In this document: piece by piece, positions 4,258-49,504 of the stretch
Layout of the letters: the number at the start of each line of letters is the position of its first letter
How positions within the stretch are numbered: position 1 is the first letter of the stretch
From: Chloroflexota bacterium
GTDB lineage: Bacteria > Chloroflexota > Limnocylindria > P2-11E
Length of the DNA stretch: 64,000 nt
Assembly: GCA_021787445.1 (NCBI GenBank)
Contig: JAJYLV010000004.1
Coordinates: forward strand, 17,095 to 81,094
Direction: 5' to 3'
Notes under the pieces: model-generated
What the model saw: only the letters and a program-made list of their open reading frames with translations
Databases searched by the model: none
What the model was told of the DNA's origin: nothing
Translations under genes and position numbers: made by a program

Positions 4258-6578
4258 AGCGTCACGATGGTCGCGCCGTCGCCGCCCTCGTTCCGCCCGG
4301 CCGTCGCGACCTCGCGCGCGAGCGGATGCTGCGCGAGCGCCGTGCGGATCGCCGCGCGAAGCGCTCCCGTGCCTTTCCCGTGCACGATGCGCACGCGCTC
4401 GTAGCCGGCGACCGCGGCGTCGTTCAGGTACCGGTCGACGGCCGCGATCGCCTCCTCCGCGCGCGCGCCGCGGATGTCGAGCTGCAACGGCACCTGCGCG
4501 GCCGTCCCCTGCACGGTGGCGCGCGAGGAGCGGACCGGCGCGGCGTCCGGCACGGGAGCCTCGCGGAGCTCGCTCGCCGGCACGCGCAGCCGCAGCGCGC
4601 CGGCGGCGACCTCGGCGACCCCCTTTGCGTCCAGCGACAGGAGCGTCCCCGGCTCGCTCATGCCCCGGATGACCACGGGGGACCCGACGGCGATCGGCAC
4701 CGTCGCGGACGGCGGCGGCGCGGGCGCGACGGCGTCGCGCGCCGCCTCGGCCTCCGCGAGCGCCGCGCGCGCATCCTCGACGAGGTCGCGCCGCGACGCG
4801 CGGTCGCGCGCCTCCTCGGCTTGGCGGATCGCGCGCCGCGCCTGGAGGAGGAGGTCCTCCGCTTCGGTGCGTGCCCGGCGGAGGCGCTCGTGCGCCTCGC
4901 CGCGGATGCGATCGGCCTCCCTTCGCGCCCCCTCGAGCGCGCGCTCGGCCTCGCGGGCCGACAGCGTCGCGCCCTCGAGCCGCTCGGCGAGGTCGGTCCG
5001 CGCGCGCTCCGCCTCACGCAGCGTGCGCTCGAGCGAGCGGTGCAGCTCCGAGAGGTGCGCTTCCGCGCGCTCGAGGACCGACGGCGCTAGGCCGAGGCGC
5101 GAGGCGATCGCGAACGCGTTCGACGCTCCCGGGAGCCCGAGGTGGACCCGGTACGTCGGGCGCAGGGTGACCGGATCGAACTCGACGCTCGCGTTCATCA
5201 CGCCGCGCGTGTTGAGCGCGAACGCCTTGAGCTCCGGGTAGTGCGTCGTCGCGGCGACGAGCGTGCCCCGCTCGAGAAGCGTCTCGAGGACGGCCATCGC
5301 GAGCGCGGCGCCTTCGTCCGGGTCGGTCCCCGCGCCGATCTCGTCGAGCAGCGCGAGGTCTCCCCCGCCCGCCTCGGCGAGGGTGGCGACGACGTTCCGC
5401 AGGTGCGACGAGAACGTCGAGAGCGACTGCTGGATCGACTGCTCGTCGCCGATGTCCGCGAACACGCTGCGGACGACCGGGAGGGTCGTGCCCGGCGCGG
5501 CCGGCACGGGCAGCCCGCATGCCGCCATGAGCGCGAGCAGCCCGATCGTCCGCAGGGTCACCGTCTTACCGCCCGTATTCGGCCCGGTCACCACCAGGGC
5601 GCGCGTCTCGCCGCCCAACCGCACGTCGATCGGCACGACCGCGTCGCCGAGCTGTCGGACGAGCAGAGGGTGACGCGCGTGGATCAGATCGATGACGCCC
5701 TCCGCCGAAAGGACCGGACGCACGCACTCGAAGCTCTCCGCGAAGTGCGCCCGCGCGAGGACGAGGTCGAGCGCGGCGAGCGCCGCGAGCACGGCCTCGA
5801 GCTCGGTGGCGGCCGCTTCCACCTGTCGCGAGAGCCGCGCCAGGACGCGCTCGACCTCGGCCTTCTCAGCGAGCTCCGCCTCGCGGAGCGTGTTGTTCGC
5901 GTCGAGGATGTCGAGGGGCTCGACGAACACCGTCGCCCCGCTCGCGGAGCGGTCGTGCACGATCCCCTTCACGGCGCTCGCGTACTCGGCCTTGACGGGC
6001 ACGACGTATCGCCCGCCGCGCTGCGTGACGATCGGCTCCTGCAGCATCTTCGCGAGCGACGGCGAACGGAGGAGGCCGTCGACGCGCTGCTGGAGTCGCG
6101 CCAGCGCCGAGCGGAGCTCGGCGCGGGCGCTCGCGAGGGCGACGCTCGCGCGGTCGAGGACCTCCCCTTCGGGCGAGATGGCATGCTCGATCGCCTGCGC
6201 GGCCTCGGCCGGCGGCCGCGCGAAGCGAGCCCGCGCGGCGAGCGGAGGATACGTCCCGACCTGCCCGAACAGGGCCTCGGCGGCGCGGACGGTCGCGGCG
6301 ACCCCGTAGAGCTGCTCGGGATCGAGCACGCCGCCGAGGCGCGAGCGCCGCAGCGGCTCGCGGATGTCGCGCGCCCCGCGCAGCCCCGCCGACGGGACAG
6401 CGCGCATGAGGTCGCGCGCGGCGGCCGTCTCGTCCTGGAGGCGCTCGGCGTCGCCCAGGTCGGTGACCGGCTCCATGGCTTCGGCGAGCTCGCGCCCGGG
6501 CTGGAACGAGGTGCTCTCGGCGACGATCTCGCGCACCGCCGTCAGCTCGAGGACGCGCAGGGTGCGCTCGCTGGTCAT
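4254..6578 (-). CDS. mutS2: endonuclease MutS2 (MutS domain plus C-terminal Smr domain)
   Basis: 774 aa. Walker A GPNTGGKT, MutS ATPase core and a C-terminal Smr domain (LDIRGARAEEA...VRIVHGKGTGALR). Confidence 0.9.
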   Translation of the reverse strand: MTSERTLRVLELTAVREIVAESTSFQPGRELAEAMEPVTDLGDAERLQDETAAARDLMRAVPSAGLRGARDIREPLRRSRLGGVLDPEQLYGVAATVRAAEALFGQVGTYPPLAARARFARPPAEAAQAIEHAISPEGEVLDRASVALASARAELRSALARLQQRVDGLLRSPSLAKMLQEPIVTQRGGRYVVPVKAEYASAVKGIVHDRSASGATVFVEPLDILDANNTLREAELAEKAEVERVLARLSRQVEAAATELEAVLAALAALDLVLARAHFAESFECVRPVLSAEGVIDLIHARHPLLVRQLGDAVVPIDVRLGGETRALVVTGPNTGGKTVTLRTIGLLALMAACGLPVPAAPGTTLPVVRSVFADIGDEQSIQQSLSTFSSHLRNVVATLAEAGGGDLALLDEIGAGTDPDEGAALAMAVLETLLERGTLVAATTHYPELKAFALNTRGVMNASVEFDPVTLRPTYRVHLGLPGASNAFAIASRLGLAPSVLERAEAHLSELHRSLERTLREAERARTDLAERLEGATLSAREAERALEGARREADRIRGEAHERLRRARTEAEDLLLQARRAIRQAEEARDRASRRDLVEDARAALAEAEAARDAVAPAPPPSATVPIAVGSPVVIRGMSEPGTLLSLDAKGVAEVAAGALRLRVPASELREAPVPDAAPVRSSRATVQGTAAQVPLQLDIRGARAEEAIAAVDRYLNDAAVAGYERVRIVHGKGTGALRAAIRTALAQHPLAREVATAGRNEGGDGATIVTL

Positions 6579-21410: not shown

Positions 21411-21601
21411 GTAGCCCCTCCTTGTCGTGAGGGGATGCTAGCGTGCCGCTTCGGCGAAAGTGTGCGTTCCGCGACGTCCGGTCTTGAGCTCCTGGACGCG
21501 GAGGCGCCGGAGGTGCAGCGGCGACGCTTGCGGCTCGTGGGTCTCGCGTGGCGCATCGCGGACATCGCAGAGGTGACGCCGCTGCCGCGGATCTCAAGCC
21601 G

Positions 21602-35923: not shown

Positions 35924-37258
35924 CTATCGGGATGCTCCTGTATCGCGCGATACGTTCGCGAGGCCGCGATCGATCAGAGCCGTGTGTCGCACGCGTCGAC
36001 CACCCATCCAGACGGCGATCACGAGCGCCGCCGCGCCGACGAACACCGGAGCGATCCCCCACAGGTCGGCGACGGGACCGACGAGGAGCAGCGGCAGCAG
36101 GCTGAACACCGACACGAGCATGTTGAGCACGCCGAACACGCGTCCGCGGATGACCTCGGGGAGCTCCTCCTGGATGTACGTCATCGAGGGAACGGTCACG
36201 AAGGCGTACGCGACACCGAAGACGAATGCCGTGAGGGTGACGACGCCGATGAAGTACGGCAGTCCCTCCAGACCTCCGCCCTTCGCGGCGCGTCCGGCGA
36301 TCGCGGCGACCGGTCGCGCCGCGGCGAGGACGATGAGGGCGGCGACCGTGGTCCCGAGCCCCAGACCGACGACGCGACCGTGGCCCACGCGCGGGGTCAC
36401 GAGGTTCAAAGCACCGAGGCCGGCGACGACCCCGATGCCCGCGGGCGCCACCAGCAGGGCGAAGGACCGCTCGGGCAACAGGAGCACTTCGCGCACGTAC
36501 CCCGGCGCGAGCGCCCCGGCCATGGCGACGAGCGTGTACATCACGGCGATGTAGATGAGCGACCACGCGATGGCGCGCCGCGTGGCGAGGAATCCGAGCG
36601 CTTCTCCGATGTCGCGGCGCCCGCGTTCGATCGCCTGCCCCGCGACGTCGACGCCCAGCCGCTCCACCAGCGGTCCGCTGGGCGGGAGGGTGGCGCACAG
36701 CGCGGCGGCCGCCGCGAACATGACGATGATGGCGGCGAACAACGCCGTGTAGCCGGCGAACGCGACGACGAGCGGTGCCAGGATGATGAAGCCGAGCAGG
36801 AACGCGCCGTTGAACGTGAACGTGAAGAGCGAGTTCGCGGTGAGCAGGTCGCGCTTCCGGACGATCGCCGGCAGCGTCGCTGCCTCGGCCGGCACGAAGA
36901 ACACCGTCACCGAAGCCACGAGGAAGTTGACCGCGTAGGCGGTCACGAGGTTCCGTTCGAAGAGCAGCGTCAGCGTCACGGCCAGCGCGCGTAGCGCGTT
37001 CGTGACGACCATCACGAGCCGCTTGTCGGTGCGGTCGACGAAGAGGCCGGCGAGGATGCCGAAGAGGACCGGCGGGATGACCGCGAAGAGGATGAGCAAA
37101 GAGGACGAGGTGTTGGACTTCGTGACCTCCGCGACGAGCGCGATGAGCGCCGACGTGAGGGCGTTCGCGGCGGTCATCGACAGGATCTGCGCCGACCACA
37201 CCGCGAGGAACGCGCGGTTGCGCAGGAGCCCCTGCTGAGCCGCGGTCTCGATCTCCAT
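35924..37258 (-). CDS. MFS transporter
   Basis: 444 aa with 12 predicted TM helices and MFS-type loops. ATG at 37258. The 51-aa upstream extension in the track is discounted. Confidence 0.75.
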   Translation of the reverse strand: MEIETAAQQGLLRNRAFLAVWSAQILSMTAANALTSALIALVAEVTKSNTSSSLLILFAVIPPVLFGILAGLFVDRTDKRLVMVVTNALRALAVTLTLLFERNLVTAYAVNFLVASVTVFFVPAEAATLPAIVRKRDLLTANSLFTFTFNGAFLLGFIILAPLVVAFAGYTALFAAIIVMFAAAAALCATLPPSGPLVERLGVDVAGQAIERGRRDIGEALGFLATRRAIAWSLIYIAVMYTLVAMAGALAPGYVREVLLLPERSFALLVAPAGIGVVAGLGALNLVTPRVGHGRVVGLGLGTTVAALIVLAAARPVAAIAGRAAKGGGLEGLPYFIGVVTLTAFVFGVAYAFVTVPSMTYIQEELPEVIRGRVFGVLNMLVSVFSLLPLLLVGPVADLWGIAPVFVGAAALVIAVWMGGRRVRHTALIDRGLANVSRDTGASR

Positions 37259-37260
37259 TT

Positions 37261-37473
37261 TCAGTCCGTCGGCGCCAGCGGTCTCTCCACGAACCGCTTG
37301 ATGTCGCGCTCCACGGCGCTGCGGCGCACCAGCACGCGGTGCCCGCACGTCAGACAGCGAAGCCCGATGTCCGCGCCGAGGCGCACGATACGCCACGTAT
37401 CTCCGCCGCACGGATGCCGCTTCCGCAGGGCGACGACGTCATCCATATACAGCGCTATGGGCGGCCCAGGCAT
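37261..37473 (-). CDS. small zinc-ribbon protein, DUF951-like
   Basis: RKRHPCGGDTWRIVRLGADIGLRCLTCGHRVLVRRSAVERDIKRF matches the DUF951 pattern (HPCG..W.I.R.GADI..C..CGH.V). The start may be the internal Met (MDDVV). Confidence 0.6.
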   Translation of the reverse strand: MPGPPIALYMDDVVALRKRHPCGGDTWRIVRLGADIGLRCLTCGHRVLVRRSAVERDIKRFVERPLAPTD

Positions 37474-37485
37474 GCGCGGCGGAGT

Positions 37486-38136
37486 CTATTGGCCCGCGAG
37501 CGCAGGCAGATCCAGTGAGTCCTCGCGCGTCACCGTGAATCGAGTGTGCGCGTAGATCAGCTGGAACTGGCCCATGATGCCGCCCGTGCGCGTCATCGCC
37601 ACGTACAGCACGTCGGGCGCGCCGATCGAGCGCACCGTCCACGGTCCGGGAACGACCGCACCGTCCACCACGACCTCTCCGTTCGGCCCCCGCCCGAACC
37701 ACGTCCGCGGGCCGACGCGCGCGCCGTTGACGGCGATCGCCTCGGCTCCGGCATTGCGCAGCTCGTTGACGAGATCGGAGAGCGCGTGCTCGTCGAACGC
37801 GCCGTCGATCCGTATCGTGATGCCGGGCCCCGCGACGGCGCTCTGTCCCGAGAAGACCTCGAGCTGCTCGAGCTGGCGCTGTGACTCCTCGAGCGTTCCT
37901 TTGCCACCGGCGACCTCGGTCTGCGCACGGTCGACGCGCAGCTGGAGGTCGAAGATCTCCGACCGCAGCTCGCGGTTGCGATCATTGAGGTCGGCGATGA
38001 GGGTCGCCAGCGTCTCCGGCGTCTCCTGCTCAAGGCTTCGCGAGTACACGTCGCGCGATCGGAACTGCGACACCACGAGGGTGCCGAGGAACAACGCGAC
38101 CGCCGCGACCGCGACGGGTCCGAGACGCGACCTCAC
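37486..38136 (-). CDS. DUF881 family protein (YlxW/YlxX-like, cell-envelope/division associated), paralog 2
   Basis: N-terminal TM, coiled-coil and DUF881 core (GPGITIRIDG...NELRNAGAEAIAVNGAR). GTG start overlaps the stop of paralog 1 (GTGA). Confidence 0.75.
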   Translation of the reverse strand: MRSRLGPVAVAAVALFLGTLVVSQFRSRDVYSRSLEQETPETLATLIADLNDRNRELRSEIFDLQLRVDRAQTEVAGGKGTLEESQRQLEQLEVFSGQSAVAGPGITIRIDGAFDEHALSDLVNELRNAGAEAIAVNGARVGPRTWFGRGPNGEVVVDGAVVPGPWTVRSIGAPDVLYVAMTRTGGIMGQFQLIYAHTRFTVTREDSLDLPALAGQ

Positions 38137-38849
38137 CGCGCCACCGCCGAACGGACGATGACCGGACCCTCGTAGCCGTGGAGCGTCACGTCGGGAACGC
38201 GCGCGATCCGCAGGTCCACGATCTGCTGATCGCGTCGCTGCTTCAGATCGGTCAGCTCCGCCGGATCGTTCATGACCGCGAGGATCCCGGAGGGCGGCCC
38301 GACGGCGGTCACGGTGAAGGGAGACGAGACGATGCTCCCGTTCACCACGATCGTTCCGCCGACGCAGTAGACGCTCGACGATGCGACGATCCGCTCGTCG
38401 TCGATCGCGACGGCGCGCGCGCCACCTCTCCAGGCGGCGTTGACGATGTCGGTGAGGTCCGGAGCGAAGCACGGAAGGCGGTCCTGCCCGAGATCGGCCG
38501 CGGCGCGCGTCATGTCGAAGGCAACGACGACCCCCTCGCCCGATACCGCGGTCAGTCCGGCGCGGTCCCGCAGGCCCTCGAGGCGCGTCGTGAGCTCCTG
38601 CACGCTGCCGTTCTCGGCCGCCCCGGTCTGCTGCAACCGGTCGAGCCTGGCGCGCACGTCCGCGAGCTGCGCCTTCAGCGCGGTCTGCTCGTTCTCGAGG
38701 CTCGTCACCGTCGAGCTCAGCGGGTCGATGTAGCGCAGGCTTACGGCCCGCGACGCGGCGACGGTCGCCCACTGCGCCGCCACGAGGAAGCCGAAGACGA
38801 GCGCGGGGACCGCGAGCGCGAGGCCCTTTTGCAGCTTGGTCGCGCCCAT
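38133..38849 (-). CDS. DUF881 family protein, paralog 1
   Basis: N-terminal TM, coiled-coil and DUF881 core (GEGVVVAFD...AAWRGGARAVAIDDERI). Confidence 0.75.
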   Translation of the reverse strand: MGATKLQKGLALAVPALVFGFLVAAQWATVAASRAVSLRYIDPLSSTVTSLENEQTALKAQLADVRARLDRLQQTGAAENGSVQELTTRLEGLRDRAGLTAVSGEGVVVAFDMTRAAADLGQDRLPCFAPDLTDIVNAAWRGGARAVAIDDERIVASSSVYCVGGTIVVNGSIVSSPFTVTAVGPPSGILAVMNDPAELTDLKQRRDQQIVDLRIARVPDVTLHGYEGPVIVRSAVAR

Positions 38850-38880
38850 CAGAATGGAAGTGTCGCTCTCGTGGCTCCGC

Positions 38881-38953
38881 GGGGCTGTAGCTCAGAGGAC
38901 AGAGCAGGTCCGTCCTAAGGACTTGGTCGTGGGTTCGACTCCCACCAGCCCCT
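38881..38953 (+). tRNA. tRNA-Arg (anticodon CCU)
   Basis: Acceptor GGGGCUG/CAGCCCC, D arm GCUC-AGAGGACA-GAGC, anticodon arm GGUCC-GUCCUAA-GGACU, T arm GUGGG-UUCGACU-CCCAC. Discriminator U (atypical). Confidence 0.75.
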
Positions 38954-39015
38954 CCGCCGGACCGGAGATCGCTGGTCGCCGTGCCCTTACGCTGCCCCTT
39001 ACACTGAACCGTCAG

Positions 39016-39088
39016 CGGGGTGTAGCGCAGTTGGTAGCGCGCAGCGTTCGGGACGCTGAGGTCGCCGGATCGTGCCCGGCCACCCCGA
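39016..39088 (+). tRNA. tRNA-Pro (anticodon CGG) with an atypical T-loop (A54/U58 swap)
   Basis: Acceptor CGGGGUG/CACCCCG, D arm GCGC-AGUUGGUA-GCGC, anticodon arm CAGCG-UUCGGGA-CGCUG, T arm GCCGG-AUCGUGC-CCGGC, discriminator A. Confidence 0.65.
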
Positions 39089-39130
39089 CAGTCGTGGCCT
39101 GGCAGGCATCCCTTCAGGTCGTGTCGCCTC

Positions 39131-39778
39131 TTGCGTTTGATAGAACAGGCGTTCTATGGTCGATCCGTGCCCGCAGAGCTTCACGCCACGTACCAGCTCT
39201 GCACCCGCTGCGGCAGCCTCAAGCCCCTTGAAGAGTTCCATCGCCGCGGAGCGGCCCGACAGCACTGGTGCAAGTCATGTCGCAAGGTGTGGGACTCCGC
39301 CTATCACGCACGAACGAAGCCGGTCCGTTTACGCCAGAAGCGCGCGCACAAGCGTCGCTTGCTGGAGTGGATGCGCGATATCAAGACGTCGCGACCATGC
39401 GCCGATTGCGGCGGCCGTTTCCATCCAGCCGCCATGACGTTCGACCATTTGCCTGGCCAGAAGAAGATCGCCGCCATAGCCGAGCTCGTGAAAAGGGGAT
39501 GTACAGGACTCGCGGAGGCGGAGATCCTCAAGTGCGAAGTCGTCTGCGCGAACTGCCATGCCGTCCGCACCTACGAGCGGCGCGAGGCCGAGAGGCGGGC
39601 ACGCGCGATACCGGATCATTCGATCCGTGAGGGACGCGGTCGTTATGCGTCTTGCCCTCTCGATCAGATCGTCGCCGCCGAGACCGACATCACCGGCGGC
39701 AGGTACTGGGCGACGAGCGCCCACGTGCGGCCCTCGTCGGCGCTTCCCCAGACCTCGCCGCCTTCGGTCCCGAAATAG
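39131..39778 (+). CDS. HNH endonuclease family protein (Cys-rich zinc-finger N-terminus plus HNH motif), atypically low GC
   Basis: CTRCG...CKSCRK, CADCGG, FDHLPGQKK...CANCHAVRT (HNH nuclease signature). GC about 60% with low GC3 against about 72% locally. TTG/GTG start. The 3' end overlaps the convergent BNR gene by about 115 nt. Confidence 0.65.
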   Translation: MRLIEQAFYGRSVPAELHATYQLCTRCGSLKPLEEFHRRGAARQHWCKSCRKVWDSAYHARTKPVRLRQKRAHKRRLLEWMRDIKTSRPCADCGGRFHPAAMTFDHLPGQKKIAAIAELVKRGCTGLAEAEILKCEVVCANCHAVRTYERREAERRARAIPDHSIREGRGRYASCPLDQIVAAETDITGGRYWATSAHVRPSSALPQTSPPSVPK

Positions 39779-40824
39779 ATCCCCGCCGGGTCGAGCCGGT
39801 CCACCGCCATCCCTTCGCGGAGCACCTCGGAGCGCGCCCCCTTCGGCAGACCGCGCGCGTGGCGCTTCCACGACCGGCCCGCATCGGTCGTGGCATAGAC
39901 CGCGATGCCGGGGTCCGGCGCGATCCGCGTCTGCCCTTCGAGCGGGATCACGTACGCCGTCTTCGGGTCACGCGGGTGGATCGCCGATGCGAAGCCGAAC
40001 GAATACTTGTCGAACTGCAGGCTCGCCTCGGGGAGCCCGGCGCTCGTCTCGTGCCAGCCCGCTTCTCCATCGTTCAGCCAGTACACCCCGAAATGGTTCT
40101 GCTGGAAGCGCACCCCCGGGGTCGTCGGGTGGGCGACGAGGTGATGCACGCAGAACCCGACCTCGGGCTCCTTCTGCGGATCCATCGGGTTGGCGAGCCC
40201 CTTGTTGCGCGTGGCCCACGTCCTCCCGCCGTCCGCCGACTCGAACACGCCCACCGCGCTGATGCCCACCTGCATCTTCTTGGCATCCGCGGCGTCGATG
40301 GCGATCGAGTGCAGGATCAGGCCGCCGGCGCCGGGGTTCCACTGGTCGTGCGTCGGATGATCGGTGAGCGACGCGACCTCGCTCCACGTCTCGCCGCGGT
40401 CATCGCTGCGGAAGAGCGCCGCCGGCTCGATGCCCGCCCACATGACCTTCGGCTGCGAGGAATGGCCCGGCTCGATGTGCCACGTGCGCTCGAACACGAG
40501 CTCACGCGTCACCTGCTTCGGCATCTGCTCGCCTTCGACCCAGGTGTGGTACGTCGCCACCCTGCCCTTGGCGAACGCGGGGTTCGAGACCACTTTCCAC
40601 GTCTTCCCCTGATCCCGGCTGACGCGGATCTTCGGGCCGCCCCACGTGAGGTTGCACGCCGCGAACATCGACTCGCCGTCGCGTGGATCGAACGCCATGT
40701 GGTGTACGGGCTCACCGGGAAAGAGCGGCCCTTCCGCCGTCCACCGCTTGCGCCCGCCGCCGGCGCGAAAGATATACGCGCCCTTCTTGGTGCCGACGAG
40801 CACCGCGACCTTCTTCGCCGCCAT
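39664..40824 (-). CDS. cytoplasmic BNR/Asp-box repeat beta-propeller protein (sialidase-like fold)
   Basis: Five Asp-box repeats (SRDQGKTW, SDDRGETW, SADGGRTW, TTDAGRSW, SADEGRTW). No signal peptide. ATG overlaps the stop of the upstream MoaD-like gene (ATGA). Confidence 0.75.
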   Translation of the reverse strand: MAAKKVAVLVGTKKGAYIFRAGGGRKRWTAEGPLFPGEPVHHMAFDPRDGESMFAACNLTWGGPKIRVSRDQGKTWKVVSNPAFAKGRVATYHTWVEGEQMPKQVTRELVFERTWHIEPGHSSQPKVMWAGIEPAALFRSDDRGETWSEVASLTDHPTHDQWNPGAGGLILHSIAIDAADAKKMQVGISAVGVFESADGGRTWATRNKGLANPMDPQKEPEVGFCVHHLVAHPTTPGVRFQQNHFGVYWLNDGEAGWHETSAGLPEASLQFDKYSFGFASAIHPRDPKTAYVIPLEGQTRIAPDPGIAVYATTDAGRSWKRHARGLPKGARSEVLREGMAVDRLDPAGIYFGTEGGEVWGSADEGRTWALVAQYLPPVMSVSAATI

Positions 40825-41105
40825 CAGTCCCCTCCCGACATCGCCGGCACGAGGGTGAGGACGTCGCCCTCGCGGAGGGGCGTCTTCTCTCCCTTCAGCC
40901 GGCGGATCTCGTCCTCGTTCCGGAAGACGTTCAGATGCTGACGGATGCGGCCCTGTTCGTCACGGATGCGCTCGCGCAGCCCCGGCAGCTCGCCCGGCAA
41001 CACGTCGAGCGCCTCGCCGACCGTTCGCGCATCGATCGCGACGTGGCGCACGCCGCCCGCCATCTCGCTGAAAGCGCCGTGGAGCCGCACCGTCACGCGC
41101 GCCAT
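40824..41105 (-). CDS. MoaD/ThiS-family beta-grasp (ubiquitin-like) protein ending GlyGly-Asp
   Basis: 93 aa with the MoaD-like pattern and a C-terminus ...LTLVPAMSGGD. Nine nt downstream of the kinase gene. Confidence 0.7.
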   Translation of the reverse strand: MARVTVRLHGAFSEMAGGVRHVAIDARTVGEALDVLPGELPGLRERIRDEQGRIRQHLNVFRNEDEIRRLKGEKTPLREGDVLTLVPAMSGGD

Positions 41106-41114
41106 CGCCGGACG

Positions 41115-42059
41115 CTACTCCGAGCGCGACCCCGTGTCACCCACGACGCCCGCGCCGATGTCGACGAGCGACCGCAGCAGGCGATAGCGCTCGTCGACGG
41201 CCTCCGGCGTCGCTCGGGCGACGCCGTCGACGCTGAAGGTCTCGACGGCGAACGACGCGCTCACCGTTCCGTGCACGACCGCGCGCCGGAGCTCCACGGG
41301 GTCCGTCCGTCCTACTGCGGCGAGGTGACCGACGAATCCTCCGGCGAAAGAGTCCCCCGCACCGGTCGGGTCCTGCACCTTCTCGAGCGGGTACGCCGGC
41401 GACCAGAACACGCCGCCGTCGTGCAGGAAGAGCATCGCGCCGTGCTCGCCGCGCTTGACGACGAGGGCCGTCGGGCCGAGATCGAGGATCTCGCGCGCCG
41501 CGCGGATGATGCTGAACGTCTGGGCGAACTGGCGAGCCTCGCCCTCGTTGATGCACACGACGTCGGCGCGGGACATCACCGTGGCCACCGCGTCGCGCTT
41601 GAATTCCAGCCAGTAGTTCATCGAATCCATGGCGATGAGCTGCGGCCTCCCGACCTGGTCGAGGAGGTCCAGCTGGATGTCCGGATCGATGTTCGCCAGG
41701 AACACGTACGGCACGTCCCGCTTGCCGTCCGGGACGACCGGATGCCAGTCCGCGAAGACGCCGAGGTCCGTGTTGAGCGTCTCGGCCGCGCTCATGTCGT
41801 AGTCGTAGCGCCCGTGCCAGCGGAACGAGCGGCCGGGGCGGCGCTCGATCCCGGCCACGTCGATGCCCTCGGCGCGCAGCCGCTCGATGTCCCCTTCTCG
41901 GAAGTCCTCGCCCACCACGGCGACGACGTGGACCGGCGCGTAGCGGCTGGCCGCGAGCGCGAAGTACGACGCGGCGCCGCCGAGGACGTCGCGGCGCCGA
42001 TCGAACGGCGTCTGGACGTCGTCGTACGCCACGGAGCCGACGACGAGGATCTCCGGCAC
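41115..42059 (-). CDS. PfkB-family carbohydrate/nucleoside kinase (ribokinase-like)
   Basis: PfkB signature 2 DPTGAGDSFAGGF and an N-terminal GG-type motif (VVGSVAYDD). GTG start 18 nt after the CoA-transferase stop. Confidence 0.8.
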   Translation of the reverse strand: MPEILVVGSVAYDDVQTPFDRRRDVLGGAASYFALAASRYAPVHVVAVVGEDFREGDIERLRAEGIDVAGIERRPGRSFRWHGRYDYDMSAAETLNTDLGVFADWHPVVPDGKRDVPYVFLANIDPDIQLDLLDQVGRPQLIAMDSMNYWLEFKRDAVATVMSRADVVCINEGEARQFAQTFSIIRAAREILDLGPTALVVKRGEHGAMLFLHDGGVFWSPAYPLEKVQDPTGAGDSFAGGFVGHLAAVGRTDPVELRRAVVHGTVSASFAVETFSVDGVARATPEAVDERYRLLRSLVDIGAGVVGDTGSRSE

Positions 42060-42076
42060 GCGATGGACGATACGGG

Positions 42077-43483
42077 CTAGATCGCGCCCTCGCGCCGCAG
42101 CGCCTCGATCTCCGCGCCGCTGTACCCGAGCTCTCCGAGGACCTCGTCGGTGTGCTCGCCCAGGAGCGGAGGGTGCCGGCGGACCGACGGCGGCGTGAGG
42201 TCCATGCGGACGGGGATCCCGGGAGCGCGGACCCGGCCGGCGACGGGGTGGTCGGTCTCGGCGATGAGACCGAGGTGCTTCACGACCGGGTCGTGGAAGA
42301 CCTCCTGCAGGTCGTTGATCGGCCCGACGGGGACGTTCGCTTCGCGCAGCCTCCGCACGACCTCCGCCTTCGGGAGGTCGCCGATACGGGTGGACATCGC
42401 GGCGACGAGCGCGTCGCGATTCCGTAGACGCGCACGATTGCCGGCGAAGCGCTCGTCGCTCGGGAGATCCTCGAGGTCGAGCGCGTGGCAGGCGCGCCCG
42501 AACAGGGCGTTGTTGCCACAGCACACGTTCACGTAGCCGTCCGACGCCTTGAACGTCTGATACGGCGCGATGGAAGCGTGGAGGTTCCCCTCGGGCCGCG
42601 GCACGGTGCCGTCCGCGAAGTAGCGTGCGGCCTGTCGCGAGAGGAGCGCCACCTGGCCCCCGATCATCGTCGCGTCGATGACCTGGCCCGTGCCGGTCCG
42701 CGCGCGCGCGTGGAGCGCGGCCACGATGGCGAACGCCGCGAACATGCCCGCGACCATGTCGCCCTGCGGGACGCCGACCATCGTCGGCATGCCGCCCGGC
42801 TGGCCGGTCAGACTCATGATGCCGCCCATCCCCTGGACGATGAGGTCGTACGCCGCCCACGCACGGCCGGGGCCGTCCTGGCCGAAGCCGGAGATCCGGC
42901 AGAGGACCGCGCGCGGCGCGATCGCGCGGATCCGCTCGGGCGGGAAGCCGAGGCGCTCGAGCGTGCCGGGGCTGAAGTTCTCGACGACGACGTCCGCGTC
43001 CTCGATGAGGCGCTCGAGGATCCTCTTGCCCTCCGCGTTCTTCAGGTCGATCGTCACGCTCCGCTTGTTGCGGTTGATGGAGAGGTAGTAGGCCGAGACG
43101 CCGTTCACGTCGGGCGGCGCCCACTCCCGGGTCTCGTCGCCGGTCCCGGGCATCTCGACCTTGATGACGTCCGCGCCGTGGTCCCCCAGCATCAGCGTGC
43201 AGTACGGCCCGGCGAGAGCGCGCGTGAGGTCGACCACGCGGATGCCGTCGAGCGCGCCCCCCGTGCCGCCGCTGATCGCCGGCAGCACCTCGATCGTGTC
43301 GCCGGCGCGCAGCCTCATCGAGGCCTCGCACTGCTCGCCGTTCAGTACGTAAGCGGCCGTCGCGCCGGTCGGTATCCCGACGGCCGACAAGACCTCGGCG
43401 ACCGTCAGTCCGTCACCGTGGACCTCGAGGACCTTCCCGGGCGCGAACTGGCGGAGCTCCCCGTGGAGGATGAGGCGGACCAC
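42077..43483 (-). CDS. fusion protein: N-terminal ThiS/MoaD-like beta-grasp domain (ends ...PAISGG) + family III CoA-transferase (CaiB/BaiF/Frc family)
   Basis: Residues 1-73 MVRLILHGELRQF...VAEVLSAVGIP...AAYVLNGEQCEASMRLRAGDTIEVLPAISGG fit the ThiS/MoaD pattern. They are followed directly by the CoA-transferase III N-terminus TGGALDGIRVVDLTRALAGPYCTLMLGDHGADVIKVE. No stop or start lies between the two parts. Confidence 0.75.
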   Translation of the reverse strand: MVRLILHGELRQFAPGKVLEVHGDGLTVAEVLSAVGIPTGATAAYVLNGEQCEASMRLRAGDTIEVLPAISGGTGGALDGIRVVDLTRALAGPYCTLMLGDHGADVIKVEMPGTGDETREWAPPDVNGVSAYYLSINRNKRSVTIDLKNAEGKRILERLIEDADVVVENFSPGTLERLGFPPERIRAIAPRAVLCRISGFGQDGPGRAWAAYDLIVQGMGGIMSLTGQPGGMPTMVGVPQGDMVAGMFAAFAIVAALHARARTGTGQVIDATMIGGQVALLSRQAARYFADGTVPRPEGNLHASIAPYQTFKASDGYVNVCCGNNALFGRACHALDLEDLPSDERFAGNRARLRNRDALVAAMSTRIGDLPKAEVVRRLREANVPVGPINDLQEVFHDPVVKHLGLIAETDHPVAGRVRAPGIPVRMDLTPPSVRRHPPLLGEHTDEVLGELGYSGAEIEALRREGAI

Positions 43484-43571
43484 TTCGGGCGGACGATACC
43501 CCGCCCTTCGCAGGGCGCCCGCCGCCGGTTACCGTGGGGACGTGAGCGACGACGCCGTCTCGCGCGCGCCT

Positions 43572-44228
43572 ATGGCGCTGCCGCTGTTCCCGCTGAACAG
43601 CGTGCTCTTCCCCGACATGCTCATGCCGCTGCACATCTTCGAGCCGCGCTACCGCCTCCTCGTGCAGCGGTGTCTCGAGGACGGCACGCCTTTCGGCATC
43701 GTCCTCATCCAGGAAGGAGAAGAGGTGGGGCCCGAAGCGATACCCCACCGTGTGGGAACGAGCGCCGAGATCGTCGCGCACGCCCCGCTTCCCGACGGTC
43801 GCTCGCTCATCACCGTCCGTGGCGGCAAGCGCTTCGAGATCGACTCGGTGCAGAGCGACGCCGCGCCGTACCTCGTCGGCCACGTGCGCTACCTCGACGA
43901 CGCGCCGGAGGAGGCCGCGCGCCGGCTCGCCGACGTCGTCGCGGAGGCGTACGCCGACTACGTCGTGGGCGTCGTGGCGGCGACCGGCGGCGTGCGGCGC
44001 GAGGTCCCTGTCGTCGACGAGATCCAGGGCGGCTCGCCCTGCGACGTCTCCTACCGCGTCGCGGCCGGTCTCGCCGTCGAGGACGACGAGCAGCAGATGC
44101 TCCTCGAGACGGCGACGGCGCACGAGCGCCTCGTCCGCGAACGGGAGATCATCTCGCGAGAATGCGCGCTGCTCACCGAGATGCTGGTGCGCATGCGCGC
44201 CCGTGGGGAAGGACCGACGCTGCACTAG
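43572..44228 (+). CDS. Lon N-terminal (LON substrate-binding, PUA-like) domain protein, stand-alone
   Basis: LPLFPLNSVLFPDMLMPLHIFEPRYRLLVQRCLEDGTPFGIVLIQEG matches the Lon N-domain/COG2802. Divergent from the ThiS-CoA-transferase operon. GTG at 43542 is an alternative start. Confidence 0.7.
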   Translation: MALPLFPLNSVLFPDMLMPLHIFEPRYRLLVQRCLEDGTPFGIVLIQEGEEVGPEAIPHRVGTSAEIVAHAPLPDGRSLITVRGGKRFEIDSVQSDAAPYLVGHVRYLDDAPEEAARRLADVVAEAYADYVVGVVAATGGVRREVPVVDEIQGGSPCDVSYRVAAGLAVEDDEQQMLLETATAHERLVREREIISRECALLTEMLVRMRARGEGPTLH

Positions 44229-44246
44229 CGGGCCCGCGGCGGATGC

Positions 44247-45821
44247 CTAGGCGATACCCTCGGCGAAGCGCACGACCCCATCGACCACCGTCGCGCTGAC
44301 ATGGAGGCCCGGCCAGTCCGGCGGCGGCACGCGGGCGAGGTCGGCCGATACGACGGTCGCGTCGCAGCGCTTGCCCACCTCGAGCGTCCCGAGCTCGGCC
44401 TCGCGGCCGAGCGCGTACGCGACGCCCGCGCTGTAGGCGCCGAGCGCCTCGTCCAGCGTGAGCGCCTGCTCCGGATGCCACGGCCCCGCGTCGCCCGGGC
44501 GCATCCGCGTCACGGCGGCGTGGATCCCGAGGAGCGGGTCGATCGGCTCGACGGGCGCGTCCGACCCGAACGCGAGCACCGCACCGCCGTCGCTCAGGCT
44601 CCGCCAGGGGTAGGCGCGCGCGGTGCGCGCAGCGCCCCAGTAGCGATCGGCGAGGTCGCGATCGCTCGTCGCGTGGATCGGCTGCATGGAGGCGACGATC
44701 CCGAGCGCGCCGAAGCGCGAGAGGTCATCGCTCCGGACGAGCTGGATGTGCTCCACCCGCTGTCGCAGCTGCGGGGCCGTGCGGCGCGTCGGCTCGATCG
44801 CGTCGAGCGCGACGTGCACGGCCCGGTCGCCGATGGCGTGGATGGCGACGGAGATGTCCGCCGCCGCGGCCGTCGCCACACGCTCCGCGAGCCGGTCGGG
44901 CTCGATGGTGAGGACGCCTCGGTCGCGCGTCCCTCCGTATGGCTCCTCGAGCGCAGCGGTCTGCGATCCGAGCGCGCCGTCGGTGAAGATCTTGAGCGGC
45001 CCGATCCGCAGGAGGTCGTCGCCGTATCCGGTGCGCAGCCCGAGCGCGATCGCTTCGTCGAGCCGCGCGAGCGGCAGCCCTTGGTGGATCCGCAGCCCGA
45101 GCTCGCCTCGGGCGCGCATGCGGTCGAACGCGCCCAGGGGGATCGTGCCGACGAAGTCGTCGAGGCATCCGATGAGCGTCAGCCCGCGGCGCCACGCCTC
45201 GGCCTGCCCGAGCCGCGCGAGCTCGTAGCGCTCCTGGGCGTCGGGCTGCGGGAGCACGCGGTCGACGAGGCCGATCGCGTTCTCCTTGAGGATGCCGGTG
45301 GGGGCGCCGCCCGCGTCGCGCTCGACGACGCCGCCGGGCGGCACACGGGTGTCGGCGCGGATCTCGGCGATCTCGAGCGCTCGCGTGTTGGTCCACCGCG
45401 CGTGGCCGTCACGGCTGCGCAGCGCCGCGGGGCGCCCGTGGGAGACGCGGTCGAGCTCCTTCGCCGTCGGCCAGCGTCCCCACGCGTTCTTGTCGAAGCG
45501 ACCGCCGAGGATCCATCGTCCCTCCGCGAGACCGCTGGCGTAGGCGTCGATCCGCGACAGCGCCTCGTCGATCGTCGCCGCGTCGCTGATGTCGATGCGG
45601 CTCATCTGCTGCGCCCACCACACGAAGTGGCAGTGCACGTCGCCCCATCCGGGGACCATGAGGCCGCCACGAAGGTCGATCCGCTCCGCGCCGCCGGCCT
45701 CCCGCGCGAGATCCTCCGCGCGCCCCACCGCCGCGACGCGCCCGTCGCGCGCGAGGAGCGCCTCCGCGCTCGTACCGCCCTTCACCTGAACGCGACCGCC
45801 GTGGAAGAGGACCGCGTTCAC
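44247..45821 (-). CDS. metal-dependent amidohydrolase (amidohydrolase 3 / YtcJ-like family)
   Basis: 524 aa. HxH metal motif (DVHCHF) and amidohydrolase_3 C-terminal motifs (FGSDAPV). GTG start overlaps the HAD gene stop (GTGA). Upstream track extension discounted. Confidence 0.75.
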   Translation of the reverse strand: MNAVLFHGGRVQVKGGTSAEALLARDGRVAAVGRAEDLAREAGGAERIDLRGGLMVPGWGDVHCHFVWWAQQMSRIDISDAATIDEALSRIDAYASGLAEGRWILGGRFDKNAWGRWPTAKELDRVSHGRPAALRSRDGHARWTNTRALEIAEIRADTRVPPGGVVERDAGGAPTGILKENAIGLVDRVLPQPDAQERYELARLGQAEAWRRGLTLIGCLDDFVGTIPLGAFDRMRARGELGLRIHQGLPLARLDEAIALGLRTGYGDDLLRIGPLKIFTDGALGSQTAALEEPYGGTRDRGVLTIEPDRLAERVATAAAADISVAIHAIGDRAVHVALDAIEPTRRTAPQLRQRVEHIQLVRSDDLSRFGALGIVASMQPIHATSDRDLADRYWGAARTARAYPWRSLSDGGAVLAFGSDAPVEPIDPLLGIHAAVTRMRPGDAGPWHPEQALTLDEALGAYSAGVAYALGREAELGTLEVGKRCDATVVSADLARVPPPDWPGLHVSATVVDGVVRFAEGIA

Positions 45822-46735
45822 AGGCCGCGTTCGACCAGGGACGGGATCTCGGTAAGGTCGCGGACGATCGCGTCCGGACGCACCCGAATGCCCGCCGGCG
45901 CCCCGCAGCCACCGCACATCACCGTCCCGTCGCGCAGGAAGAGATCCTCCGACGGGTGCTCGCAGCTTTCGGGACCGCGCCGACGCGGCTCCCGCCACGG
46001 GCTCGACGGGACATCGCCCTCGCGAGCCAGCGCGTCGGCGTAGTCCGACCGGCGCCAGATCCCGCGCATGCCGATCTGCTGCGCCCCCCAGACATCGGCG
46101 ATCAGGTTGTCGCCGACGTGGAATGCCTCCTCCGGACGCGCGTCCGCGATCTCCAGCGCCCGCTCGAATATCGCGGGGTGCGGCTTCCGCCAGCGCGCGC
46201 TGTGCGAGCTCACCACGCCGTACACCGCGTCCTCCAGGCCGAAGCACCGCCAGTCGTCGAGCACCTCCGCGTCCCCGCGCGAGAGGGTGTTCGTCACGAG
46301 AACGACGCGAAGTCCGCGGTCGCTGCACCAGCGGACCGTATCGAGGGCGCCGCGCACCGGGGTCGAGACATCCCGCAGAGGGACGCACATGAGCACCCGA
46401 AGCCGATCGAGGTCGAGGCCGTCGAGCTCGAGGCCCCGCCGTTGGAACCACGCGCGGATCCACTCCAGGGTCTCCTGGCGCGCGTCCTGCGGCGCGAAGC
46501 GATCTCCCCTTTCGTCCCGCGCCGCGAGGGCCTTCGCGAGCGGCACCGACCAGCCGGGCTCGAGGTGCGCGTCCATGAGATCGTCAAGCCACGCTTGCTC
46601 ACCGAGCTCAGCGCACACCTGCTCCCGCATCCGGCTCCGCAGCAGCTCCCGTGGCGCCCAATGCTCGACGAGCGTGTCGCCGACGTCGAAGAACGCCGCT
46701 CGCAGCGTCACCTGGGTATCGTACGGATCGCGCAC
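45818..46735 (-). CDS. HAD-family hydrolase with a Cys-rich C-terminal tail
   Basis: HAD motif I FFDVGDTLV, motif II VLVTNT, conserved Lys (KPHPAIF) and motif III HVGDNLIADV. C-terminal CGGCG. GTG start. An alternative GTG at about 46711. Confidence 0.75.
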   Translation of the reverse strand: MRDPYDTQVTLRAAFFDVGDTLVEHWAPRELLRSRMREQVCAELGEQAWLDDLMDAHLEPGWSVPLAKALAARDERGDRFAPQDARQETLEWIRAWFQRRGLELDGLDLDRLRVLMCVPLRDVSTPVRGALDTVRWCSDRGLRVVLVTNTLSRGDAEVLDDWRCFGLEDAVYGVVSSHSARWRKPHPAIFERALEIADARPEEAFHVGDNLIADVWGAQQIGMRGIWRRSDYADALAREGDVPSSPWREPRRRGPESCEHPSEDLFLRDGTVMCGGCGAPAGIRVRPDAIVRDLTEIPSLVERGL

Positions 46736-49428: not shown

Positions 49429-49504
49429 TGACGTTCAGCGGGGTGTGGCCCAGTCCGGTCCAGGGCAACAGTCTGGGGGACTGTAGATCGAGGGTTCAAA
49501 TCCC
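49429..49504 (+). tRNA. tRNA-Pro (anticodon GGG)
   Basis: Acceptor CGGGGUG/CACCCCG, D arm GCCC-(11 nt loop)-GGGC, anticodon arm ACAGU-CUGGGGG-ACUGU, T arm GAGGG-UUCAAAU-CCCUC, discriminator A. Confidence 0.85.

Follow-up and report, generated by a model that had tools for sequence, protein, structure and literature searches.

Homing-type endonucleases encoded beside tRNA genes are already known from phage T4 and from the tRNA arrays of phages and mycobacteria. The best-characterized model of a tRNA-linked homing gene is T4 SegB, a proven homing endonuclease whose free-standing gene is located among the tRNA genes of the phage and is missing from the homologous tRNA regions of close relatives, and which targets the DNA of this region at a site that includes a T-arm motif (PMC2330249). 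HNH endonuclease genes have been noted in tRNA arrays on mycobacterial chromosomes and plasmids and in mycobacteriophages (PMC5966550, PMC6582537). Here we analyze a stretch of 64,000 nucleotides (nt) from a Chloroflexota bacterium of the class Limnocylindria (assembly GCA_021787445.1, contig JAJYLV010000004.1, positions 17,095 to 81,094), called the window below, in which a predicted HNH endonuclease gene follows a tRNA-Arg(CCU)/tRNA-Pro(CGG) pair. On balance we consider it probable that this is a free-standing, homing-type HNH endonuclease gene that is tied to tRNA genes and expressed upon DNA damage. The clade to which it belongs lives beside tRNA genes: its phage members occur within arrays, and in soil bacteria (Actinomycetota, Chloroflexota, and some Acidobacteriota) the neighbor is a lone chromosomal tRNA-Pro or tRNA-Arg gene.

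The closest described relatives are the HNH genes of phage, plasmid, and mycobacterial tRNA arrays (PMC5966550, PMC6582537), exemplified by gp149 and gp150 of Streptomyces phage TomSawyer; the products of such array genes belong to the same family as the window protein (35–42% identity over the full length) and have the same zinc-ribbon plus HNH architecture. Like the cellular clade, these genes lie next to and on the same strand as their tRNAs, sometimes overlap a tRNA 5' end, and usually have a GC content below that of their flanks, as is the case here. Unlike them, the window gene sits beside a single chromosomal tRNA-Pro, paired with a tRNA-Arg, and its cellular clade is 50–66% identical within itself, has a LexA-box or PafBC-type promoter, and has been resident long enough for synteny to be conserved in the Gaiellales. 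T4 SegB resembles the window gene in being free-standing among tRNA genes and patchily present, but has a GIY-YIG fold unrelated to HNH, is a phage gene, and lacks an SOS operator; its cleavage and homing have been demonstrated, whereas those of the window gene are predicted. Members of the LexA regulons of Gram-positive bacteria and Actinobacteria, including SOS-induced putative HNH proteins of Mycobacterium tuberculosis, have the same operator core touching the promoter (PMC3323433, PMC8151990). The M. tuberculosis proteins are likened to ours by their damage control and HNH description, and differ in that the window gene is tRNA-linked, has the patchy distribution of a homing endonuclease gene, and has a LexA site that is predicted. 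The nearest solved structure by profile search is that of the Gme HNH nicking endonuclease (PDB 4H9D), a marginal similarity (E = 0.02) in which the C-x2-C ... DH ... core is shared; unlike Gme HNH and other terminase-associated HNH proteins, the window protein has an additional N-terminal zinc ribbon and a long helix, and no terminase or portal gene lies nearby.

An earlier note on this DNA, made from its letters alone, had described two Cys-rich zinc-finger-like motifs and a "textbook" HNH signature in the open reading frame (ORF) downstream of the tRNA genes. The first of these claims was borne out in alignments of 21 and 70 sequences, in which two four-Cys clusters, C24/C27/C47/C50 and C90/C93/C139/C142 (numbering of the 215-amino acid (aa) ORF), are invariant or nearly so and H98, D105-H106, K112, and N141-C142-H143 are invariant. 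The sequence hallmarks of the HNH superfamily are present, namely a catalytic His in the D-H motif and a distal metal-binding N/H in the C-x2-C-H helix cap, as is a structural zinc site in which the invariant C90, C93, C139, and C142 form two C-x2-C pairs flanking the core. The word "textbook" goes too far: the signature is backed by PHROG HNH endonuclease profiles (phrog_2255, E = 4e-27; phrog_3106, E = 1.9e-21), by phage homologues, and by a structural model, but scans of the ORF with Pfam and NCBIfam returned no HNH model at a useful threshold, giving only Stc1 (E = 0.0078, under the cut-off) and noise. A search of PDB sequences with the single ORF sequence likewise gave zinc-finger noise only. 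As the earlier note had expected, matches to phage HNH genes are plentiful, with homologues in 302 phage records at 34–42% identity, many of them annotated as HNH endonucleases, and the N-terminal region additionally matches PHROG "endonuclease VII" families.

An AlphaFold model computed on the 70-sequence alignment (predicted local distance difference test score of 91) has a zinc-ribbon-like beta region with beta-hairpins, a 40-residue helix, and a strand-strand-helix unit. Foldseek matches of this model are weak and include 4h9d, which is among the top ones, T4 endonuclease VII (1e7l), Hpy99I (3fc3 is also among the matches), and T5 SciA. From these data the gene product is predicted to be an HNH (His-Me finger) endonuclease with a conserved core of about 165 aa within an ORF of about 200 aa, apparently composed of the N-terminal zinc ribbon, the long helix, and the nuclease domain. 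The family is very large: a profile search of 1.84 billion cluster representatives detected 39,299 relatives at E <= 0.001, of which 644 reach E <= 1e-30, and none of the homologues listed bears a precomputed Pfam domain. Many of the representatives (P0123, P0136, P0160, P0170, P0172, and others) are 230–450 aa long and match the 142-position profile in two to five separate stretches, possibly because they are tandem or fused copies or because neighboring genes were annotated as a single one.

Two other classes of HNH protein were considered and set aside. An SOS-induced HNH bacteriocin of the colicin E7/E9 type, which would have receptor-binding and translocation domains and immunity and lysis genes beside it, was rejected, as the core of about 165 aa consists of the zinc ribbon and HNH domain only and there is no conserved partner gene. 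A terminase-associated phage HNH of the HK97 gp74 or Gme HNH type was rejected in the absence of phage structural or packaging genes, terminase and portal included, nearby.

The two tRNA genes that the earlier note placed directly upstream of the ORF were confirmed with ARAGORN and Rfam; it had overlooked that the linkage to tRNA genes extends across the family, that the putative promoter contains an SOS box, that the gene is likely to start at GTG 39167, and that the overlapping tail is not conserved. Scanning one genome per species gave 80 loci in Candidatus Limnocylindria and other Chloroflexota, in three groups of Actinomycetota (Gaiellaceae, Thermoleophilia, and Solirubrobacterales), and in two Pyrinomonadaceae of the Acidobacteriota; with three metagenome contigs added, the cellular loci number 83. 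In 82 of these 83 the HNH gene has a tRNA gene, most often tRNA-Pro, no more than a few hundred nt away, and in nearly all the two are on the same strand. In the window clade (L004–L007, L010, L074, L165) the HNH gene is found 28–96 nt downstream of tRNA-Pro(CGG), and orthologues linked to this tRNA occur on contigs labelled Limnocylindria, Chloroflexia, Dehalococcoidia, and Chloroflexota. Most Actinomycetota copies directly precede tRNA-Pro(UGG), those of Solirubrobacterales adjoin tRNA-Arg(UCU), and the Pyrinomonadaceae copies are downstream of tRNA-Pro(GGG); two cellular copies are situated within chromosomal tRNA arrays. Of 79 homologues on viral contigs, 36 have tRNAs at a distance of at most 400 nt, and most of these genes sit in arrays of 10–36 tRNAs. 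In TomSawyer, gp149 is the homologue and gp150 a second HNH gene in the same array, overlapping a tRNA-Gly by 15 nt. A conserved adjoining sequence that could serve both as target and as recombination homology, as is characteristic of homing genes, is present in the form of the tRNA in 82/83 cellular and 36/79 viral loci.

The contact between gene and tRNA can be intimate. Where the tRNA is downstream, the ORF abuts or overlaps its 5' end in 51 of 65 loci, with overlaps peaking at 10–11 and 23–24 nt, which in our own reading correspond to the TAG triplets of tRNA positions 8–10 and of the D-loop. The stop codon is taken from inside the downstream tRNA-Pro(UGG) in L001, L003, L009, L012, L019, L054, and about 45 other Actinomycetota loci; in L009, for example, the tRNA starts at 6385 and the stop of the HNH ORF ends at 6408. 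Because the stop codon lies within the tRNA, 5' processing of the tRNA by RNase P would leave the mRNA without one. Several database homologues are called with N-terminal extensions that are a translated tRNA gene plus a conserved "E(Q/R)xFY" stretch, and it was these extensions that exposed the tRNA adjacency and the promoter element at the DNA level.

The tRNA-Pro(CGG) of the window is itself unusual. Its T-loop (39069–39075) reads ATCGTGC (AUCGUGC in RNA), compared with TTCGAAT or TTCAAAT in all 11 other tRNA-Pro(CGG) genes compared, so that positions 54 and 58 appear swapped (A54/T58), and the cloverleaf still folds. Since T4 SegB recognizes a tRNA T-arm motif, an altered T-loop beside a nuclease gene could be an escape change; other occupied loci have a normal loop.

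The comparison of this locus in related genomes that the earlier note had proposed was made using the BNR neighbor as probe against metagenome contigs, which retrieved four syntenic relatives (BNR identity 70–73%). L165 has the arrangement of the window (DUF881 / tRNA-Arg, tRNA-Pro(CGG), HNH / BNR, ThiS), with an HNH copy that is 56% identical and degenerate, having lost the first zinc knuckle and changed a zinc ligand (C93R). L166 has the same synteny and no HNH gene, with about 57 nt comprising a hairpin and then a T run between tRNA-Pro and the BNR stop codon. The gene is also missing from L163, in which the ThiS-BNR block is inverted, and from L164; the tRNA-Arg(CCU)/tRNA-Pro(CGG) pair is found in L163, L165, and L166. 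As the five genomes (the window and its relatives) are roughly equidistant, with BNR identities of 70–77%, the pattern of occupancy needs at least two gains or losses. The HNH gene is accessory at this locus, and the segment between tRNA-Pro(CGG) and the BNR gene, 39090–39663, is a one-gene insert of about 0.57 kb. The earlier note had named, as the mark of an ancient, fixed gene, orthologues of equally low GC at the same position in all related genomes; this is partly the case, since orthologues at the same position do occur under several Chloroflexota labels. L166 and L163 are without the gene.

Targeted searches agree with the earlier note in finding no integrase and no att repeat. No tyrosine or serine integrase beside the tRNA or other phage-like gene was detected within several kb, the last 12–18 nt of either tRNA (at most one mismatch) gave no att-like direct repeat in 36000–46000, and a general repeat search around the insert returned chance-level pairs only. 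The HNH gene is intergenic, with no intron or intein, no transposase or integrase, and no terminal repeats or target-site duplication; the 64-kb window holds no second HNH copy, whether beside tRNA-Pro(GGG) at 49439, beside tRNA-Val at 21601, or elsewhere, and no partner gene is conserved across the homologue loci. A patchy locus with a one-gene insert and neither integrase nor att site fits a free-standing homing-type gene rather than a decayed island, so that of the two possibilities raised in the earlier note it is the free-standing homing-type nuclease at a tRNA locus that is supported.

Possible signs of mobility are also seen beyond this locus. Protein clades track the identity and side of the tRNA, not taxonomy, and there are two separate Chloroflexota clades, one of them nested among Gaiellales; identity to the window protein is equally high in Actinomycetota and in other Chloroflexota homologues (53–58%). 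An intact core motif is missing in 15 of 81 loci, and 14 have the HNH core only, counts to which errors in metagenome-assembled genomes (MAGs) and contig ends contribute. In Pseudomonas phage PMG1, the flanks of the homologue are annotated as similar to phage D3 and the homologue itself as similar to a mycobacteriophage gene, which suggests that it is an insertion relative to D3. Patchy occupancy, the degenerate copy in L165, loci without an intact core, low GC at third codon positions (GC3), and clades that follow the tRNA all speak for a mobile, homing-type gene; strong purifying selection and the conserved synteny in Gaiellales speak against an ongoing cycle of invasion and decay. On two contigs of one Solirubrobacterales MAG (L043 and L044) we observed a near-identical HNH gene, LexA-box promoter, tRNA-Arg(UCU), and flanks, which may be a true segmental duplication or may have arisen in assembly or binning.

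The earlier note had inferred recent horizontal acquisition from a drop in GC content at the ORF, put at about 60%. The direction of this drop is correct and its size slightly overstated: the ORF has a GC content of 62.9–64.2%, compared with 69–72% in its neighbors and 71.2% in the whole window, and a GC3 of 0.72–0.76, compared with 0.87–0.95 in the flanking genes. The conclusion drawn from it is not supported by comparison with the family. In every cellular homologue locus the HNH gene is poorer in GC than its flanks. At third codon positions the same holds relative to flanking conserved genes in 79 of 79 homologous loci (median GC3 of 0.72 for the HNH genes and 0.87 for the flanking genes), and most phage copies are likewise lower in GC than their surroundings. 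Low GC is therefore a property of the family and is unable to date acquisition in the window genome.

Upstream of the HNH gene, a 16-bp palindrome, TAGAACAGGCGTTCTA, which resembles the LexA (SOS/Cheo) box, fills the spacer of a putative promoter and abuts its -10 element. A GTG codon follows 6 nt after this element, TATGGT, and an mRNA beginning at this codon (39167) would be leaderless. The core of the palindrome, GAAC-N4-GTTC, is also the LexA motif of Dehalococcoides, a member of the Chloroflexi. The same sequence is the LexA-binding motif of Bacillus subtilis and M. tuberculosis (PMC3323433). The box recurs at the same place in L005, L006, L007, L010, L074, and L165, where it is always followed directly by TATNNT and then, after 1–9 nt, by GTG or ATG. 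An exact core is present at the promoter in 14 of 84 homologue loci, many Solirubrobacterales copies among them, as opposed to 0.17% of background windows, an enrichment of roughly 100-fold. One canonical SOS gene of the lineage was compared for the box: in L176, a relative with 56% BNR identity, TTAGAACATCCGTTCTATGG is located 43 nt upstream of a gene (region 880–1651) for a RecA-fold, ImuA-like protein of 236 aa (Pfam RecA, E = 1.7e-12; NCBIfam ImuA, E = 2.8e-8). A classic SOS cassette begins with ImuA, and the L176 gene is likely to be the start of an SOS mutagenesis cassette; its upstream box helps define the LexA box of the lineage. Judged by this conserved, predicted operator, the HNH gene is probably under LexA/SOS control.

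Homologues in Gaiellaceae and Thermoleophilia have no LexA box and instead possess the element GTC[CG]G-N10-TANNNT just before a leaderless start. It is found in 28 of 84 loci in strict form and in 39 in relaxed form, against backgrounds of 0.2% and 0.7%; in L023, L024, L027, L032, L061, and L080, for example, GTCCG-N10-TAnnnT lies about 20–45 nt upstream of the tblastn match and is followed by ATG or GTG, and part of the element is often a TGTC...GACA palindrome around the -10. This matches the PafBC motif tGTCgg(N10)tA(N3)T, a mycobacterial damage promoter composed of a -26 element and a -10 with no -35 (PMC8635444), and we regard it as a candidate PafBC-type damage promoter. The occurrence of two types of damage-response promoter on one gene family suggests that expression at the time of damage is selected.

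A second gene of low GC3 (0.72–0.82), encoding about 227 aa, was seen with the same PafBC-like leaderless promoter 2–4 kb from the HNH-tRNA-Pro pair in six Gaiellales genomes (L013, ~9446, +; L014, ~2878, +; L018, ~10444, +; L019, ~8557, +; L030, ~11956, -; L033, ~2857, -). Its product has an N-terminal HTH_23 domain and a C-terminal part that is LAGLIDADG-like by eye ("LFWAEGSRSRN..F.NSD"), and it may be another homing-type gene under damage control.

The limits of the HNH gene were revised by comparison with its homologues (Table 1). The ORF, which contains FDHLPGQKK...CANCHAVR, is open on the + strand from a TTG at 39131, with GTG 39167 as the probable start, to a stop ending at 39778, and its overlap with the convergent BNR gene, estimated at about 115 nt in the earlier note, is exactly 115 nt (39664–39778). 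The homologues, 130–170 aa in length, cover the window protein from a point some 10 residues ahead of the first Cys up to roughly residue 165. The nearest of them end after a weak "..EG..RYA.." motif, and the window ORF runs about 35 codons further into the BNR gene, so most of the overlap is non-conserved read-through in GC-rich, stop-poor DNA. A frameshift or sequencing error as the origin of the long tail was rejected, as the frame stays consistent with the "..EG..RYA.." motif and the window is then simply without a stop codon. Neither a terminator nor significant RNA structure was found at the 3' end of the ORF (39600–39670, z = +0.36).

Table 1. Coordinates of the HNH insert, its control elements, and its neighbors in the window
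Feature	Position	Strand	Evidence and remarks
tRNA-Arg(CCU)	38881..38955	+	ARAGORN; Rfam, 62 bits; upstream of tRNA-Pro
tRNA-Pro(CGG)	39016..39089	+	ARAGORN; Rfam, 60 bits; normal cloverleaf, unusual T-loop
Insert segment absent from the empty-site relative L166	39090..39663		Comparison with L166
Putative promoter	39131..39160	+	-35-like TTGCGT (39131-39136), 18-nt spacer, -10 TATGGT (39155-39160)
16-bp palindrome TAGAACAGGCGTTCTA, LexA (SOS/Cheo) box-like	39141..39156		Core GAAC-N4-GTTC (39143-39154); fills spacer, abuts -10
Predicted HNH endonuclease gene	39167..39778	+	Probable GTG start at 39167; conserved part to ~39660
N-terminal four-Cys zinc ribbon (C24/C27/C47/C50)	39200..39280	+	Residue conservation; model
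HNH / beta-beta-alpha-metal core (C90-x2-C93, H98, D105-H106, K112, C139-A-N141-C142-H143)	39398..39559	+	Alignments; PHROG; 4H9D; Foldseek
Non-conserved C-terminal read-through tail	39661..39778	+	Homologues shorter
BNR/Asp-box repeat gene, convergent neighbor bounding the insert, outside the element	39664..40824	-	Pfam BNR, E = 2.1e-10
DUF881 gene, neighbor on the other side of the tRNA pair, outside the element	38133..38849	-	Pfam DUF881, E = 1.5e-29; synteny

The neighbors of the locus (MFS, DUF951, two copies of DUF881, BNR, ThiS, PfkB, and CoA-transferase genes) are of housekeeping type. A small ThiS-family gene (40824–41105, -) is situated directly upstream of the BNR gene, and the ThiS-BNR pair is kept in most of the retrieved relatives; a family III CoA-transferase (42077–43483, -) bears an N-terminal ThiS-like, ubiquitin-fold domain. 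The tRNA/HNH region is rearranged among relatives when compared with 37486–41105 of the window: besides the inversion of the ThiS-BNR block in L163, DUF881-related ORFs of L007 and L065 flank the HNH gene on its other side. The tRNA/HNH site may be a rearrangement breakpoint.

For a homing-type gene expressed upon damage we propose the following cycle, in which LexA binding, catalysis by the nuclease, its target site, and homing itself are predicted. LexA on the GAAC-N4-GTTC palindrome abutting the -10 of the leaderless promoter would keep the gene silent. DNA damage or incoming single-stranded DNA would inactivate LexA, and the nuclease would be made when RecA is induced. It would then cut or nick at or near a tRNA-Pro allele without the gene, and recombinational repair from the occupied allele would copy the gene in, that is, homing by analogy with T4 SegB. 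After fixation, copies would persist under purifying selection or decay.

Several results weigh against this proposal. With regard to the nuclease, Foldseek gave no match at E <= 0.001 to the solved HNH structures. The palindrome is the only GAAC-N4-GTTC site in the 64-kb window, and at least one such site occurs in 27 of 100 shuffles; as it is not significant alone, the case for it rests on conservation. A simple sigma-70 and terminator scan of 38700–40000 found nothing and did not call the promoter, which accordingly rests on comparison. The left boundary of the insert is not conserved, with distances from tRNA to box of about 27 to 95 nt. The occupied loci L005 and L007 have the same tRNA-Pro(CGG) sequence as the empty L163, and no consistent difference separates occupied from empty loci; there is thus no obvious immunity change in the tRNA itself, and any target would have to extend across the insertion junction or be located elsewhere, unless the resident copy tolerates cleavage. 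Finally, close pairs are under clear purifying selection (ratio of nonsynonymous to synonymous substitution rates (dN/dS) of 0.08–0.24) and flanking synteny is conserved within Gaiellales groups, both of which are as compatible with a gene that has long been resident and may be of use to the host as with an active selfish one.

These last points lead to the most credible of the alternatives, which we nevertheless regard as doubtful, namely a domesticated damage-inducible nuclease with a host function, kept by the host and not spreading selfishly. Such an enzyme would, for example, process branched or broken DNA during the SOS response, or attack incoming tRNA-carrying phages or tRNA-integrating DNA, and the linkage to tRNA genes would be a historical relic or a co-transcription device. 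Besides the low dN/dS and a synteny kept across many Gaiellales and Thermoleophilia species, it is favored by the recruitment of a LexA box and of a PafBC-type motif in different lineages, by the "endonuclease VII" matches of the N-terminal region, and by the precedent of SOS-induced putative HNH endonucleases in M. tuberculosis (PMC8151990). What it leaves unexplained is why nearly every copy, those of phages included, adjoins a tRNA, why GC3 is about 0.15 below that of host genes in all 79 loci, and why close relatives have the same locus without the gene or with a degenerate copy; about a fifth of the loci, moreover, have no intact core motif.

A related and in our view unlikely possibility is a conserved damage-inducible nuclease and tRNA module, in which the nuclease gene is physically joined to a housekeeping tRNA-Pro or tRNA-Arg gene in three phyla and serves a role relevant to the host. 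The gene would have come independently under LexA and under PafBC, the two damage regulons of actinobacteria, and under the SOS regulon of Chloroflexota. Its role could be the cutting, triggered by damage or conjugation, of incoming tRNA-bearing DNA such as phage tRNA arrays and tRNA-integrating elements, or else recombination targeted at tRNA loci, with expression coupled to tRNA maturation.

It is improbable that we are dealing with an ordinary ancient vertical gene that was lost in some lineages, the palindrome not being a LexA site and the low GC arising from constraints such as amino acid content or embedded promoter signals. The conserved synteny in Gaiellales, the orthologues at the same site on contigs labelled as different Chloroflexota classes, and the lack of significance of the box alone in the window would all be expected of such a gene. 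They have to be set against an identity to the window protein that is about equal in Actinomycetota and Chloroflexota, two separate Chloroflexota clades, and phage relatives in tRNA arrays. In addition, the empty site of L166 is clean, with the hairpin and T run and no gene remnant, the deficit extends to GC3 and is not confined to the first two codon positions, and the box is both enriched at its position and found again upstream of the ImuA-like gene.

The remnant of a larger island or prophage that had entered at the 3' end of tRNA-Pro(CGG) and later lost all but one gene, as the earlier note had also considered, is highly improbable: a position immediately 3' of a tRNA gene is a classic integration site, the relatives are mostly phage-annotated, and the GC is lower than that of the neighbors, but integrase, att-like repeat of the tRNA 3' end, and any other phage-like gene are missing within several kb, this single-gene layout is repeated in over 80 independent genomes, and the Actinomycetota copies, on the 5' side of the tRNA and overlapping it, cannot be produced by integration at a tRNA 3' end.

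For the window, the analysis yields a corrected annotation, that of a free-standing gene, predicted to encode an HNH endonuclease and probably starting at GTG 39167, with a putative SOS-box promoter and a non-conserved C-terminal tail, and low GC here is not to be taken as a sign of recent transfer. In the literature searched we found no description of the cellular clade on single chromosomal tRNA-Pro or tRNA-Arg genes in uncultured soil lineages, of the frequent borrowing of a stop codon from a tRNA, or of two damage-regulon promoter types in this clade. The lineages that carry it (Gaiellales, Thermoleophilia, Solirubrobacterales, and Limnocylindria) are uncultured and abundant in soil. If the damage control is true, it would offer a testable idea of how a selfish nuclease might keep its toxicity in check and time its expression to periods of active recombination or the entry of foreign DNA, and the gene would be a predicted new member of the little-known SOS and PafBC regulons of these phyla.

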